Assembly: GCA_963826715.1 (NCBI GenBank)
Contig: CAWGYA010000006.1
Span: 32,001 to 96,000, forward strand
Length of the DNA: 64,000 nt
Origin: Candidatus Bathyarchaeota archaeon
GTDB taxonomy: Archaea; Thermoproteota; Bathyarchaeia; Bathyarchaeales; Bathycorpusculaceae
Direction: 5' to 3'
In this document: positions 424 through 53,102 of the stretch, piece by piece
Position numbering within the stretch: the first letter of the stretch is position 1
Layout: each line of letters starts with the position of its first letter
The notes under the pieces: model-generated
Databases searched by the model: none
What the model saw: only the letters and a program-made list of their open reading frames with translations
What the model was told of the DNA's origin: nothing
Translations under genes and position numbers: made by a program

Positions 424-736
424 TTGCCCCTTACAATTACGGGTTAAACTCCAAAAATTGAATAAAAAATGTAAAAAAATCATTCTGTATTACTTAAAAC
501 TTGCATTCCTAGTTGGCATCGCATTGATAATATAACCATAATTAAAAGTAAATTCAATTAAAAAAAGAAAAAGAAGAAGCAACCCCCCACCAAGTCATTT
601 CTTCTATTGAAGAAAAATAAATCTCTTACAAATACAGCTACGCCACCATCAATTTATAAGATCATATTTTCTAGAAAAGTTTTCCTGAGTATTAATTACT
701 GACATATCTGTAAGGTATCAAGGAGAAAAACCAAAA

Positions 737-2226: not shown

Positions 2227-3000
2227 ATGACCTTACTTTCTGACACAAGATACATTTTCATAAGGTACATGAAAAAACTCATCCGAACCCCTATCCTGCT
2301 TTTCTTTTCACTCTTTCAACCTATCCTATTTCTAGTGCTTTTCACACAACTACTCACAAGACTTAGTAATTTCCCAGGCATATTGCCCCCCGGAGTTAGC
2401 TATTTAGAGTTTGCAACAGCAGGAATTTTGATGCAAAACGCATTTGGAAGCGCATTACAATCAGGAAACTCCATAGTCGCCGATATTGATACGGGCTATC
2501 TACAAAAAATGCTCGTGACACCATTGAGCCGCCCAGCAATTCTTTTAGGACGACTAAGCAGCGATGCCTTCAGAGTAGTCGTACAATCAGCCATAATCTT
2601 GGGACTATCATACGCGTTAGGTGCCTATGTCACAACCGGCATTCTCGGAATTCTGGGAATATTCTTCACTCTTGCATTCTTTGGACTTGCTTGGTCAGGA
2701 ATTTCCCTATTTTTGGGTATGAAAACAAGAAGTTCTGAAACAGTTTTCGCAATAGGCGGAATCTTAACCTTTCCATTGCTTTTCTTGAGCCCTGCATTAT
2801 TTCCAATTGACTTCCTACCTGAATGGGTTAGAACCGTCTCCATGTTTAACCCTGTAAGCTACGCGGTGAACGCTAGCAGGGCATTCATGATTACCGGCTA
2901 CGATTGGGGGACGATACTTCCAGCTTGGGGAGTAATCGGGCTTGTCGCCTTGATAACGCTGAGCGCCACATTATACCAATTCAGAAAAGTAGTCAGCTAA
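2227..3000 (+). CDS. ABC-2 type permease (DrrB-like)
   Basis: Six hydrophobic segments, NPVSYAVNASR motif, adjacent to the ATPase. Confidence 0.9.
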   Translation: MTLLSDTRYIFIRYMKKLIRTPILLFFSLFQPILFLVLFTQLLTRLSNFPGILPPGVSYLEFATAGILMQNAFGSALQSGNSIVADIDTGYLQKMLVTPLSRPAILLGRLSSDAFRVVVQSAIILGLSYALGAYVTTGILGILGIFFTLAFFGLAWSGISLFLGMKTRSSETVFAIGGILTFPLLFLSPALFPIDFLPEWVRTVSMFNPVSYAVNASRAFMITGYDWGTILPAWGVIGLVALITLSATLYQFRKVVS

Positions 3001-3373
3001 AAGAAACAAGAAACGCTGATTGAATGCATGCGAAGACAATAACTCGAGTAGCCAATTGATACCCTAAGAAAAACTCTAATAATCCAGTCGGTTCCTTAAA
3101 ATGCCACCAACAAAGCTGAAAAAATCCTAAAAAACAAAACGCACATACACAAACGAAAACGCTTTTCTAAAAAACTATGAAAAATTGCGTTGTTCATAGC
3201 AAATTAACACATTTATGTCAAAAACCAAAATCGAACAACTGAACTCTTGGACAAAATTGACCACACACACCACACAAATGTCTCAAAAATTTAAATCAAA
3301 GCCCATATATGTAAGGCAATTGACCATTTTTTGCACAAAACCACCTATATTTCGCCACTGTACATTATATATT

Positions 3374-3592
3374 GTAGGCCGGGAAGTACGCTTTAAATGC
3401 GATGCACCAAGGCAAAGAGTGAATCGATCAAAACAGCGAAAAATCGATTCGCGACTAAAAATCTGCTTTGATGGGCTGAAACAGCACGTTGCAGTAAGGC
3501 TTGAGCGACAGGGTCAAAACGGTGAAAGACCCCGAAGCGGCAAAGAAAAGTCTTAATGGACCGCACAACACTAAGGCTTAGACCCGGCCTGC
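3374..3592 (+). ncRNA. novel structured ncRNA candidate, copy 1 (homolog at 36430-36659)
   Basis: 10-bp terminal stem GUAGGCCGGG/CCCGGCCUGC; two stem-loop/pseudoknot modules; covariation with copy 2; CTATATTT box at 3345-3352. Confidence 0.8.
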
Positions 3593-3612
3593 TCTTCTAA
3601 TTATTTTACCTA

Positions 3613-4146
3613 TCAACCAAATTTTTTAACGATCTCTTTAATAACATTAAAGTTCCGTGTAGTTGCCTTCAATCCCAGCGTCTTCTCCAAAAAAGGGTTA
3701 GGTAAGGCACCTTCACCTCCACCATGAGTAACACTGAACACCTCTGAGGTTTCATACGAGATTATTTCAGCTGTAGATCTTGGAATAATTCGGGGAAGCG
3801 AAAGCGGAAAAATATTTGGCATAGAGTCAGTGAAGGTTACCAGAAAACTTGAACCCTCACTCTGTTGACCTTGAAATGGGTTTAATTCAATGATAAATTT
3901 TAACCGAGATATGGTTCTAAGAAAAATAGGAACATCATAACCCAAGATTTTTTTAAGGCAGCACTCAATTTCAGCTTTAATCACCCAGCTGTTTTCTACT
4001 TGAGTTTTAAAAATTACATTCCCGCTTTGCTTATAGGTTGAAACTTCAAGGTACCCCAAACTTTGGAAAGCTTTTTTCAGTATATCTTTAGTTACGATGT
4101 GTCCGCCGACATTGATTCCACGCAAAAAAGCTATGTAACAGGTCAT
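3613..4146 (-). CDS. DUF1697 family protein
   Basis: YIAFLRGINVGG, TYKQSGNVIF and C-terminal TTRN motifs. Confidence 0.85.
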   Translation of the reverse strand: MTCYIAFLRGINVGGHIVTKDILKKAFQSLGYLEVSTYKQSGNVIFKTQVENSWVIKAEIECCLKKILGYDVPIFLRTISRLKFIIELNPFQGQQSEGSSFLVTFTDSMPNIFPLSLPRIIPRSTAEIISYETSEVFSVTHGGGEGALPNPFLEKTLGLKATTRNFNVIKEIVKKFG

Positions 4147-36341: not shown

Positions 36342-36429
36342 CCTCGTTATGAATTCAGAAGGATTAAGTTTGATATCAAAAAAGAGGGGAAAATGGGAAA
36401 ACCTAAATTTCTTTTTCTTCCACTCAATA

Positions 36430-36659
36430 TTGCAGATCTGGTCTGAGCCTTATTGTCGAACGCAGCCCATCTAAACCACGTCTTAGCTGCAACAGATTCG
36501 TTCGCCGCTTGGAATCGCTGCATCATGGAGTAGATGCTTCAACAGCACATGACCAGCCCACAAAGGCAAAGACTTAGTCGCGGGCCAATCGTTCGCTGTT
36601 TAGAGTGGCTCACATCTGTGCCTTGTGCATGCGTCTAAAGCTTGCTCCCAGACCTGTAA
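36430..36659 (-). ncRNA. novel structured ncRNA candidate, copy 2 (homolog of 3374-3592)
   Basis: Terminal stem UUACAGGUCUGG/CCAGAUCUGCAA; shares GCUUUA, AUGCAC-AAGGCA, AAACAGCGAA, CGCGACUAA, UGGGCUG and UAAGGCUyAGACC with copy 1; TTTATAGC box at ~36680-36688. Confidence 0.8.
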
Positions 36660-36878
36660 CTACAATTAGAGCAGGGTCTGCTATAAATTTTGTGACATAT
36701 ATGCTATAAAAGCAAACAAAAATGTATCATTTAGTACAACAGTTTGGGTAAACTCAGAAAAAAAATTTAATACCAACCCGGTAACTATACATATAGTTAT
36801 CCAAACGGCAAAAAATTACTTGTCAACTCTAAAGGTTTAGATTCTTCACAACTCAAGCAAGCAATTGATTCCAAAAAT

Positions 36879-38491: not shown

Positions 38492-38576
38492 GCAGGGGTC
38501 GCCAAGCCAGGTCAAAGGCGTAGGCTTCAGGAGCCTATCCCGCAGGGGTTCGTGGGTTCAAATCCCACCCCCTGCA
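38492..38576 (+). tRNA. tRNA-Leu(CAG)
   Basis: GCAGGGG/CCCCTGC acceptor stem, TAGGC-TTCAGGA-GCCTA anticodon arm, long variable arm, GTTCAAATC T-loop; CCA follows. Confidence 0.97.
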
Positions 38577-38714
38577 CCAAATAGCAGACTATTGGGGGTC
38601 AACCTCAAAGAAACCTTGGCAAAACAGTTTATAAAAAAATTTTACGTATTTGTTTCTTTTTTACCATGTACTAGTTTCCCAGTTTATTGGACAAGTTCAA
38701 TAATTCTAAATAAA

Positions 38715-53018: not shown

Positions 53019-53028
53019 ATTATCGGAG

Positions 53029-53102
53029 GGCCGGGGCCGAGATTTGAACTCGGGCGAAAGGCTCCACAGGCCTCTATGCTGCCAAGCTACATCACCCCGG
53101 CC
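53029..53102 (-). tRNA. tRNA-His(GTG), G-1 encoded
   Basis: G-GCCGGGG/CCCCGGC-C acceptor stem, GAGGC-CTGTGGA-GCCTT anticodon arm, GTTCAAATC T-loop. Confidence 0.96.

Follow-up and report, generated by a model that had tools for sequence, protein, structure and literature searches.

A structured RNA of Bathyarchaeia with tandem pseudoknotted modules, excised at a bulge-helix-bulge motif and closed to a circle

A conserved structured non-coding RNA of Bathyarchaeia, made of two copies of one pseudoknotted hairpin module, is encoded in the genome of a Candidatus Bathyarchaeota archaeon (assembly GCA_963826715.1, here G000). It lies on a stretch of 64,000 nt of contig CAWGYA010000006.1, called the window below, which holds a second, paralogous copy on the opposite strand (Table 1). 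The interior of copy 1 is cut from its transcript and closed head-to-tail as a circle of 192 nt. [quoted passage not shown]

Table 1. Positions of the parts of both RNA copies in the window
Feature	Position	Strand	Remarks
Copy 1, promoter	3329..3352	+	BRE-like TTTTGCACAAAA, then TATA-like CCTATATTT; centre ~27 nt upstream of P1
Copy 1, P1 5' strand (outer helix h of the BHB)	3375..3383	+	pairs with the P1 3' strand, 3583..3591
Copy 1, central helix H of the BHB, 4 bp	3384-3387 / 3576-3579	+	AAGU / GCUU; 99.4% of cells paired (89 sequences)
Copy 1, 5' three-base bulge	3388..3390	+	ACG; cut between 3389 and 3390; A-N-G in 86/89 sequences
Copy 1, 3' three-base bulge	3580..3582	+	AGA; cut between 3581 and 3582; AGA in 81/89 sequences
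Copy 1, excised, circularised RNA, 192 nt	3390..3581	+	RNA-library contigs
Copy 1, P2	3390..3395 / 3572-3577	+	GCUUUA / UAAGGC; 6 pairs, 95.6% paired
Copy 1, module A	3403..3478	+	outer stem 3405-3414/3464-3473; GA junction 3417-3418; inner stem 3419-3429/3442-3452; loop 3430-3441; 3' bulge 3453-3463; pseudoknot CAGC 3434-3437 / GCTG 3475-3478
Copy 1, module B	3490..3563	+	outer stem 3492-3502/3548-3558; GA 3503-3504; inner stem 3505-3515/3528-3538; loop 3516-3527; 3' bulge 3539-3547; pseudoknot CGGT 3520-3523 / ACCG 3560-3563
Copy 2, paralog	36432..36656	-	~72% identical to copy 1 over the blastn-aligned part; model R1, 183 bits
Copy 2, BHB		-	P1 36648-36656/36433-36441; H 36644-36647/36445-36448; bulges 36641-36643, 36442-36444; mapped from the alignment
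Copy 2, module A	36554-36629	-	mapped from the alignment; pseudoknot CAGC 36595-36598 / GCTG 36554-36557
Copy 2, module B	36463-36538	-	mapped from the alignment; pseudoknot CGGC 36504-36507 / GCTG 36463-36466
Copy 2, circle, predicted, 199 nt	36443..36641	-	same BHB geometry as copy 1
Copy 2, promoter	36681..36696	-	TGTCACAAA, then AATTTATAG

A tandem module with a covarying pseudoknot

In both window copies the parts of a module follow each other in the same order: an outer stem, a GA junction, an inner stem with an apical loop, and an A-rich 3' bulge. Four core bases of each apical loop pair with the four bases directly 3' of the outer stem. A preliminary description of this DNA had proposed that each copy holds the same stem-loop/bulge/pseudoknot module twice in tandem, and this is borne out for 3375-3592 on the plus strand as well as for 36432-36656 on the minus strand; the positions that it gave for the two pseudoknots of copy 1 are exact. 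The four module instances of the window can be aligned in register, together with 153 module instances of homologs, and the motifs UGCA, NGA, AAAC(A/G)G(C/U), GCGA(C/U)NAAGAC and UGG(G/A)CYG are common to the aligned modules. The last of these had been placed after the outer stem; the motif is indeed conserved, but its UG is part of that stem. A covariance search with a single module (model R2, built from a single-module relative) finds two matches in each window copy (3375-3509 and 3472-3592 in copy 1, 36524-36656 and 36432-36560 in copy 2), and both pseudoknots show covariation.

Over 89 distinct homologous sequences, 94.1% of the cells of the whole fold are paired and 53 of 60 pairs have changed on both sides, a value that none of 500 shuffles attained. 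Such changes affect all nine pairs of P1 (97.1% of cells paired). In module A they are seen in 10/10 pairs of the outer stem, 11/11 of the inner stem and two of the four pseudoknot pairs (pseudoknot 98.4% paired). The pseudoknot of module B is paired in 99.6% of cells, with both-sided changes in three of four pairs (CG 58/AU 5; GC 51/AU 12; CG 26/UA 26/UG 13). P2 is longer in the single-module relatives, where six of its 11 pairs have changed on both sides.

The compensatory changes in the pseudoknots, claimed before for the four window instances, thus extend to the family: five of the eight pairs are changed on both sides across the 89 homologs, and 0/500 shuffles reach the observed values. 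Nor do the homologs break the complementarity between loop and downstream segment, since the eight pseudoknot pairs are standard in 99.0% of cells, compared with 11–39% when the partner strand is slid by one to three columns as a control. One pair (32:74) is formed in all of the 153 module rows which have letters at both columns (AU 72, GC 61, GU 12). In the 21 single-module RNAs the pseudoknot is paired in 95.2% of cells, and two of its four pairs have changed on both sides. The variants encountered include CAGC/GCUG, CGGC/GCCG, CGGU/ACCG, AGGC/GCCU, UGGC/GCCA, CGAC/GUUG and CAAC/GUUG. A loop that pairs with the strand 3' of its own hairpin, and is kept in this state by compensatory change, is an H-type pseudoknot. 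A fifth pair, described for module B of copy 2 (the G of GCGGC with the C of GCUGC), did not hold up: it is unpaired in 41 of 66 family cells, and therefore the pseudoknots have 4 bp.

Two competing pairings were considered and rejected. The local hairpin GCUG-N-CAGC can form in 18 of the 89 sequences and is absent in 71, and the pairing of GGGCUG with an upstream GCGAUGC, which RNAalifold gives, shows no both-sided changes (pairs 26:106, 27:105, 29:103).

The junction between the two stems is not a K-turn as bound by L7Ae. On the 5' strand the outer stem runs directly into the GA (pairs 11:61, 13:59), and the seven to nine unpaired bases lie on the other strand, 3' of the GA. In a K-turn the bulge precedes the GA of its strand on the 5' side; here it follows on the 3' side, and the bend is therefore no canonical K-turn. 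The GA junction and the A-rich 9-nt bulge may bend the inner stem back against the outer one and thereby bring the loop within reach of its pseudoknot partner. In SAM-I riboswitches the sharp bend of a K-turn in P2 lets a hairpin loop form a pseudoknot with a junction strand. The module resembles this generally known fold-back of SAM-I in that the two stems are of nearly equal length (inner 11 bp, outer 10–13 bp) and meet at tandem G-A with an asymmetric bulge, and the loop pairs at the foot of the outer stem; it differs from the SAM-I K-turn in the position of its bulge.

A circular form in RNA libraries

Contigs from RNA libraries, three at least 99% alike to copy 1 (X1, X2, X3) and one 90–95% alike (X4), cover only 3390-3581 within the region 3250-3750; runs with small word shares (X5-X24) were left out of this reading. 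A back-joint leading from 3581 to 3390 is present in the contigs of X3 and X1, the latter from a library that carries the label 'RNA? (probably DNA)', and the same joint is found in the relative X4. The X1 contig of 222 nt corresponds to the 192 nt of the circle plus 30, whereas in X2 the contig reaches 3581 and then goes on in a loose end identical to 3390-3403. X4 differs in the inner stem of module A in a compensatory manner (3422/3449, 3423/3448). In the window's genome, 16-, 20- and 24-mers that span the joint have no occurrence.

The same permuted joint, from a further relative, was found at the end of a metagenome contig (L283). It came from a scan of metagenomes for the joint pattern with at least 116 matches; of the 80 loci tested with R2, 79 were chance matches on long contigs and one, L283, was real. 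Contigs no longer than the circle seem to be scarce in the scanned collection. 14-mers resembling the junction also occur at genomic loci (L050, L080 and seven GatD/GatE loci) and were dismissed as coincidences. The circular joint was seen for copy 1 and two relatives only, in assembled contigs rather than raw reads; such contigs say nothing on abundance and leave room for a linear form beside the circle.

None of the three frames of the circle is free of stop codons, and multiples of three are not favoured among the circle lengths. A coding reading was discarded as well: neither of the open frames that overlap the RNA, 3215-3556 (+) and 36347-36526 (-), has a Pfam match.

The bulge-helix-bulge motif and the processing enzymes

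A canonical BHB is present at the ends of copy 1, with a 4-bp central helix and 3-nt bulges on opposite strands on either side. By the definition given in an excerpt of PMC7714728, the outer helices h and h' should have at least two Watson-Crick pairs. Here, h is the 9-bp helix P1, and h' consists of 3 bp (96.9% paired), which are followed by one bulged U and the rest of P2. The central helix occurs as GAGC/GCUU (33 sequences), GAGC/GCUC (26), AAGU/GCUU (14), AAGC/GCUU (6), GAGU/GCUC (4) and GAGU/GCUU (2), with an A at its first position only where U stands opposite. Judged from the joint, both cuts are symmetric and fall after the second base of each bulge, which we take to be the canonical positions, following the geometry of tRNA introns at 37/38.

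The window's genome has two tRNA_int_endo open frames (184 and 185 aa) and one RtcB (503 aa). The ends of the transcript pair as P1 and, together with the 4-bp helix and its two bulges, make up the BHB; from the geometry and the presence of the genes, EndA would then cut the motif and RtcB would ligate the excised piece. Once the circle is closed, P2, as a slipped helix, would end in a loop UUAG that, going by the joint, would be made by the ligation itself. The joint at the cut sites of a BHB, together with endonuclease paralogs and RtcB in the same genome, thus argues for a dedicated, promoter-driven gene for a circular RNA.

Gene setting

A promoter element like that of copy 1 also stands upstream of homologs: a TATA-like hexamer starts between -40 and -31 in 44 of 84 homologs, versus 3–14 of 84 in each of the remaining 10-nt bins. 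Beyond P1, the flanks of homologs cannot be aligned, and oligo-T occurs within 45 nt downstream in only 65 of 89 sequences, a count without control. A convergent DUF1697 gene begins 21 nt beyond copy 1, and copy 2 has no same-strand gene within ~430 nt downstream. No universal neighbour gene exists among about 90 loci. The largest neighbour clusters cover 19 of them and comprise a convergent DNA ligase, an unnamed protein, a glycosyltransferase, an MFS transporter, a rhomboid protein and a pyrophosphatase.

One sister genus has eight diverged single-module copies in a different setting: they precede the start signals of small genes by 16–55 nt. These genes code for dodecin (3), Zn-ribbon proteins (2), a cold-shock protein (1), Hsp20 (1) and an unnamed protein (1). 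The copies of this genus are flanked by an intact BHB motif and lie just upstream of Shine-Dalgarno-like sequences, and the part predicted to be excised is a conserved pseudoknotted fold of 106–112 nt.

Distribution and number of modules

Model R1 detected the RNA in 96 of the 120 genomes searched from the genus and, at the level of the order, in 76 of 151. With model R2, 28 of 151 genomes of the class were positive. A sample of the phylum gave nine matches in 151 genomes; all nine belong to the window's class, which leaves 0/131 for genomes of other classes. Among the genomes searched, the RNA thus appears, as far as such sequence models reach, to occur only in Bathyarchaeia. R2 found no match in many families of the class, e.g. 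in 0/14, 0/10 and 0/11 genomes; therefore the RNA is either not essential for the class or has diverged beyond the models.

Genomes carry one to four diverged copies, and the relatives have one module (132–138 nt), two or three; the RNA of one genome (G013) is a three-module sequence and is matched three times by R2. This variation makes the module the true duplicating unit. The view of a pseudo-symmetric two-domain RNA hence stands in part: two homologous domains in tandem are present in the window copies, but the number two is not fixed in their relatives.

Comparison with known RNAs

At gathering score, Rfam recognises only two tRNAs in the whole window. Six weak, unrelated hits appear in 3000-3700 at E up to 10; the sole riboswitch model among them is a sub-threshold PreQ1 at 3153-3184, outside the RNA. 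A permuted or divergent RNase P or SRP RNA was also considered and rejected, as the canonical genes lie elsewhere (RNaseP_arch, 170.2 bits, on contig C2; Archaea_SRP, 151.9 bits, on C8).

To our knowledge, circles made by the archaeal splicing endonuclease are mostly by-products such as introns and rRNA intermediates, plus a few repaired or permuted housekeeping RNAs. BHB-dependent circles described in archaea, according to the available sections of PMC4731332 and PMC7714728, include excised tRNA introns, circular pre-16S and pre-23S rRNA and the circular permuted SRP RNA of Thermoproteus tenax. The RNA described here shares with them the succession of helix, 3-nt bulge, 4-bp helix, 3-nt bulge and helix at the base of the terminal stem, the symmetric cuts in the bulges followed by ligation of the excised piece, and the splicing endonuclease and RtcB genes in the genome. 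It differs from them in that the excised piece is no intron, spacer or rearranged housekeeping RNA; it makes up the entire product of a promoter-driven gene of its own and has a fold that matches no Rfam family.

In our literature search, no description of a family of circular or structured non-coding RNAs from Bathyarchaeia turned up; supplements and the catalogues of viroid-like circles (10.1101/2022.07.19.500677) were outside this search and may hold such circles unrecognised. The accessible part of the preprint 10.64898/2026.10.21.760802 mentions neither a BHB nor the RNA of the window.

Possible functions

Taken together, we consider it probable that this stand-alone, BHB-processed gene makes a circle which is a functional, exonuclease-resistant platform with one to three binding units for a single partner. 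The circle would present one to three copies of the same unit to this partner and could act as a scaffold or decoy, perhaps linked to stress physiology. We think that the partner is more likely a protein than a small ligand. As to a stress link, it rests on the leader copies at dodecin, Zn-ribbon, cold-shock and Hsp20 genes in one genus. A cold-shock protein as obligate partner was rejected, as genes with a cold-shock domain do not track the RNA (0/12 genomes of the genus, 0/34 in family f11).

In such a gene, the circle would be the whole purpose of a conserved, independently transcribed unit with an elaborate, covarying fold and a copied module. If confirmed, the RNA represents a new class of structured RNA from a group of archaea that is abundant and for the most part uncultured, a naturally occurring modular, multivalent circular RNA design and a concrete, testable substrate for work of EndA and RtcB other than on tRNA.

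A more far-reaching reading, which we regard as speculative and rather doubtful, is that circular riboregulators encoded in the genome form a dedicated class in Bathyarchaeia: rings with one to three pseudoknotted 'sensor' modules, whose leader copies are switchable BHB introns that couple the production of circles to the expression of stress genes. Here, a promoter-driven transcript would become a closed ring by means of the tRNA-splicing machinery. In the leaders, folding of the module, or its occupancy by a ligand or protein, could choose between the slipped P2 and the BHB register and in this way decide whether the leader is spliced.

It also seems unlikely that the RNA is a tandem riboswitch-like sensor, with modules serving as aptamers for small molecules or ions, either in cis control or for buffering or sensing the ligand in trans. 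Glycine and ydaO riboswitches, presumably RF00504 and RF00379 (the latter for c-di-AMP), consist of homologous domains in tandem, in which junction bases are conserved and a pseudoknot or tertiary closure is present. The preliminary description drew an analogy to tandem aptamers for glycine or c-di-AMP, which implies a leader in cis and two cooperating sites. The likeness in the two tandem homologous domains and conserved junction bases, as these riboswitches are commonly known, is one of architecture only, and the analogy itself could not be upheld: the window copies are stand-alone with their own promoter and match no Rfam riboswitch, and the RNA is circular, archaeal, outside a leader and has one to three domains. 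Sensor modules would fit the highly conserved unpaired junction bases, next to which the stems vary freely, and the single-module copies near Shine-Dalgarno-like sequences in small-gene leaders of one genus. A precedent for such leader copies, in the portion of PMC7714728 at hand, is the 46-nt BHB intron in the 5' UTR of Haloferax volcanii HVO_1309; like it, the sister-genus copies lie in mRNA leaders within an intact BHB, and unlike it, they have a conserved pseudoknotted fold that is predicted to be excised and exists as a stand-alone gene too. Against a sensor stand the missing same-strand gene close downstream of both window copies, a module number that varies from one to three, and the lack of any expression platform found; a leader position applies only to the eight diverged copies of another genus. 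Moreover, an element that is excised as a circle is removed from any mRNA, which argues against a riboswitch in cis.

We give only a slim chance to a trans-acting base-pairing or guide RNA, in which conserved unpaired segments (A-rich bulge, loop flanks and the ACA after each module) would pair with rRNA, tRNA or mRNA. Invariant single-stranded stretches exist indeed, namely GANAAAGAC and a (G/A)(A/U)CA after each pseudoknot, and archaeal guide RNAs are often circular, as stated in parts of PMC9014305. However, inspection of the alignments by eye revealed neither C/D boxes nor a two-sided H/ACA pocket, and the best-conserved loop bases are taken up by the intramolecular pseudoknot.

Very improbable is a processing by-product, in which case the circle would be a functionless excised spacer or intron and the functional product the ligated flanks, or nothing. 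Although excised tRNA introns and rRNA spacers circularise too (extracts of PMC7714728), the interior is far better conserved and structured than the flanks, with 53/60 covarying pairs in the order-wide sample, and a dedicated promoter drives a transcript which is almost wholly circle.

Finally, the idea that the RNA is a viroid-like element or another mobile circular replicon, with no more than a resemblance to a chromosomal locus, can hardly be credited: it does appear as a small closed circle in metatranscriptome assemblies from several habitats, but it has a chromosomal gene with a promoter at loci shared within lineages (96/120 genomes of the genus), no match to a ribozyme family, ends defined by a host BHB motif, and G-U pairs kept in one strand only, whereas viroid- and Obelisk-like elements lack a cellular DNA copy and have self-cleaving ribozymes or a replicon protein; all frames of the circle hold stops. 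Small closed circles in metatranscriptomes can be host-encoded archaeal RNAs rather than viroid-like replicons.

A conserved two-module RNA

The pseudoknot modules that a preliminary description had placed at 3409-3563 are part of a longer conserved element (copy 1), of which blastn and pairwise alignment revealed a diverged second copy (copy 2; see table). No Rfam family matched either copy, and neither did any riboswitch or ribozyme model. The genome carrying the window (G000) is archaeal, 2.64 Mb in size with 41% G+C; GatE is encoded in the window, where two tRNA genes were the sole Rfam or ARAGORN matches. A divergent or permuted RNase P or SRP RNA was ruled out, since both are present at other sites in the genome.

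Relatives from the same genus fall into two paralog classes by blastn. RNAalifold folded an alignment of 19 of them (A2) into stem P1, which closes the structure, helix P2 and two hairpins that are each divided into outer and inner stem. R1, a covariance model built from this structure with the pseudoknots left out, found matches in 96 out of 120 genomes of the genus (1-4 per genome) and in 76 out of 151 genomes of an order-wide sample. By family, these were 33/34 genomes in f11, 19/35 in f7, 4/4 in f5, 2/3 in f12, 2/25 in f6 and 15/35 in f1, with no match in f2, f3, f4, f8, f9 and f10 of this sample. When 90 matches, 89 of them distinct, were aligned (A3), standard pairs occupied 94.1% of cells and 53 of 60 pairs had changed on both sides. 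None of 500 shuffles came as high, and slid pairing gave 26-40%. The strand of the RNA is settled by its G-U pairs.

Anatomy and number of the modules

The preliminary description had each loop core pairing with a segment downstream. Loop cores are absent from the structure model of R1 and this pairing was scored separately: 99.0% of 583 cells are paired between the core and the 4 bases that immediately follow the outer stem on its 3' side, and the tetranucleotides of the two pseudoknots are all four where they had been reported. The pairs are CG 73/UA 1, AU 62/GC 10/GU 9, GC 75/GU 4 and CG 80/UG 1 in module A (the first), and CG 58/AU 5/UG 2/UA 1, GC 51/AU 12/GU 3, GC 64/GU 1 and CG 26/UA 26/UG 13 in module B (the second). 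Shuffles never scored as high (0/500), and slid pairing reached 11-39%. A fifth pair read in copy 2 had to be abandoned, 41 of 66 cells being unpaired. Of the 89 sequences, 18 are able to form the rival local hairpin (GCUG-AAA-CAGC type).

A single register accommodates all 153 module instances, and a mutual-information scan of them recovered the stems and the pseudoknot, with the outer stem reaching directly to an invariant GA. The A-rich bulge GA-C-N-AAGAC (7-9 nt) is confined to the 3' strand, by which the junction differs from a K-turn. The inner stem (11 bp) is matched in length by the outer stem (10-13 bp), which makes the geometry consistent with a sharp fold-back.

In many R1 matches from other families the whole model fits into 132-138 nt, with P1, P2 and one module. 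In the alignment of 21 such RNAs (A4), 89.7% of cells are paired and 36 of 45 pairs changed on both sides; their P2 has 11 pairs, 6 of them covarying. A model of the single module (R2) matches twice on each window copy, which together with pairing and covariation bears out and extends the earlier observation of a duplicated module. On one RNA of genome G013 it matches three times, and the sequence read out there indeed contains three modules. Single-module RNAs matched by R2 also occur in another six families of the class (28/151 genomes); all 9 genomes matched among 151 of a phylum sample belong to the window's class, and 0 of 131 genomes from other classes of the phylum matched.

A module tree was computed from 127 rows (153 minus 26 near-identical ones; L123 and the second copy of L080 had been excluded earlier). 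Second modules occupy two starred clades, of 42 and 12 rows, and may have more than one origin. The first modules of both window copies share one clade and their second modules another; because they thus cluster by module type, the duplication of the module predates the gene duplication behind copies 1 and 2, on a tree that is coarse, having only 81 columns. The partial copy at L080, about 1.25 kb from an intact one on the opposite strand, is probably a decayed duplicate.

The RNA is circularised through a bulge-helix-bulge motif

[quoted passage not shown] A search of sequencing runs with 3250-3750 returned three libraries with 20-28% of the sampled words (X1-X3) and a fourth with a share of 0.06 (X4). 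Contigs from all four cover 3390-3581 only, and k-mers spanning the joint were not found in the G000 genome. The same permuted joint, from another relative, lies at the end of metagenome contig L283, the sole real match of 80 loci checked with R2 among at least 116 joint-pattern matches; this contig resembles an assembly chimera that started from the circular RNA. As the evidence consists of assembled contigs, it allows no statement on abundance or on linear forms. Predicted circles measure 106-112 nt in 21 single-module and 192-207 nt in 66 two-module RNAs.

The internal loop separating P1 from P2 holds both circle ends and, with the register shifted by one base, is a canonical BHB motif as defined in PMC7714728. 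It comprises P1 (9 bp), a 3' bulge AGA, a 4-bp helix, a 5' bulge A-N-G, and CUU/AAG leading into P2. The 4-bp helix is GAGC/GCUY (AAGU/GCUU in copy 1), with 99.4% of cells paired and an A at the first position only where U stands opposite. Each cut follows the second base of its bulge; tRNA introns at 37/38 imply the same position for the archaeal splicing endonuclease. G000 encodes two paralogs of this enzyme (184 and 185 aa) as well as RtcB, and genome-wide the BHB signature occurs in the two window copies only, apart from a marginal match whose outer helix has 5 bp. The ligated joint UAAGGC-UUAG-GCUUUA is invariant. After ligation P2 could form, capped by the UUAG loop, and we infer that the RNA slips between the BHB and P2 registers. 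Anatomy and biogenesis, read as a whole in this way, are in our view very probably correct.

BHB-dependent circles described in PMC4731332 include tRNA introns, pre-rRNAs and the permuted SRP RNA of Thermoproteus. The biogenesis found here agrees with theirs, but the RNA itself has no match among known RNAs, and our literature search found no paper on such an RNA in Bathyarchaeia. We conclude that it represents a new gene family dedicated to a modular circular RNA, with biogenesis of a known type.

Possible function

The alignments leave the stems free to vary but show hardly any change in the GA junction, A-rich bulge, loop flanks and pseudoknot letters, which argues for specific recognition. 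A module number that ranges from 1 to 3 is more readily explained by a multivalent binding platform than by a cooperative sensor with two fixed sites. Tentatively, the circle might serve as a stable platform with repeated binding units, a protein being a likelier partner than a metabolite. A cold-shock protein as obligate partner was ruled out, as cold-shock genes do not track the RNA's distribution.

Promoters and genomic context

In the window, each copy is a gene of its own. Nearly all copies are preceded by a conserved BRE-like GCAAAAG and a TTATAT-type box; the bin -40..-31 holds the start of a TATA-like hexamer in 44 of 84 sequences, versus 3-14 of 84 in other bins. In 65 of 89 sequences the 45 nt downstream contain an oligo-T run, a count without control. 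Which genes lie next to the RNA depends on the lineage, and their orientation is often divergent or convergent. The earlier interpretation is borne out in part: its two homologous pseudoknot domains in tandem are real, but the proposed analogy to riboswitch-like tandem aptamers is, for the window copies, contradicted by their context. A GAGUGGAAGAAAA-like motif is conserved among copy-2-type genes outside the predicted circle, at the same place in loci L040, L042, L056, L070 and L073, with the short hairpin ACGG-AAAAA-CCGU behind it in several relatives.

The sister genus g16 has eight diverged copies of the single-module form, their BHB motifs intact, placed 16-55 nt ahead of Shine-Dalgarno-like sequences and the start codons of small genes. 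Since a promoter precedes the RNA and a gene start follows it, these copies would be putative BHB introns of mRNA leaders, and would match the BHB leader intron reported for Haloferax HVO_1309 (PMC7714728). Such a position would tie production of the RNA to stress genes in g16.

Furthermore, RNAs of 160-167 nt share promoter, P1 and BHB sequences with the family around a different interior. The same frame for processing might be used by circles of different kinds.

Table. Location of copies, joints and neighbouring features
Feature	Location	Strand	Remark
Copy 1	window 3375-3592	+	218 nt
Copy 2	window 36432-36656	-
Predicted circle, copy 2	window 36443-36641	-
GAGUGGAAGAAAA-like motif	window 36395-36431	-	directly after P1
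tRNA-Leu(CAG)	window 38492-38579	+
tRNA-His(GUG)	window 53028-53101	-
X1 contig	joint 3581 to 3390		222 nt = 192 + 30; shorter side 68 letters; library type uncertain
X2 contig	contig end at 3581		14-letter loose end = 3390-3403
X3 contig	joint 3581 to 3390		shorter side 35 letters
X4 contig	same joint		relative, 90-95% alike; module A inner-stem differences compensatory
Permuted joint	L283:272-393	-	1427-nt contig; end of module B, joint, module A, fused to unrelated sequence
Three-module RNA (G013)	L225:1322-1636	-	one P1/BHB frame; first module doubled, then usual second module
Degenerate partial copy	L080:2980-3202	+	first module only, then unrelated sequence
g16 leader copy	L115:2001-2134	-	cold-shock protein gene downstream
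g16 leader copy	L116:2001-2134	+	unnamed 46-aa frame downstream
g16 leader copy	L117:2001-2135	-	Hsp20 gene downstream
g16 leader copy	L118:2001-2136	+	dodecin gene downstream
g16 leader copy	L119:2001-2137	-	32-aa Zn-ribbon protein gene downstream
g16 leader copy	L120:2001-2137	+	dodecin gene downstream
g16 leader copy	L121:2001-2138	-	dodecin gene downstream
g16 leader copy	L122:2001-2138	-	32-aa Zn-ribbon protein gene, then cold-shock gene downstream
Further copy	G204:C7:914-1050	-	cold-shock frame at 465-617 (-)
RNA with other interior	L228:1501-1667	+
RNA with other interior	L229:1501-1660	-
RNA with other interior	G172:C24:21068-21229
RNA with other interior	G212:C22:144208-144368
RNA with other interior	G190:C33:390779-390939
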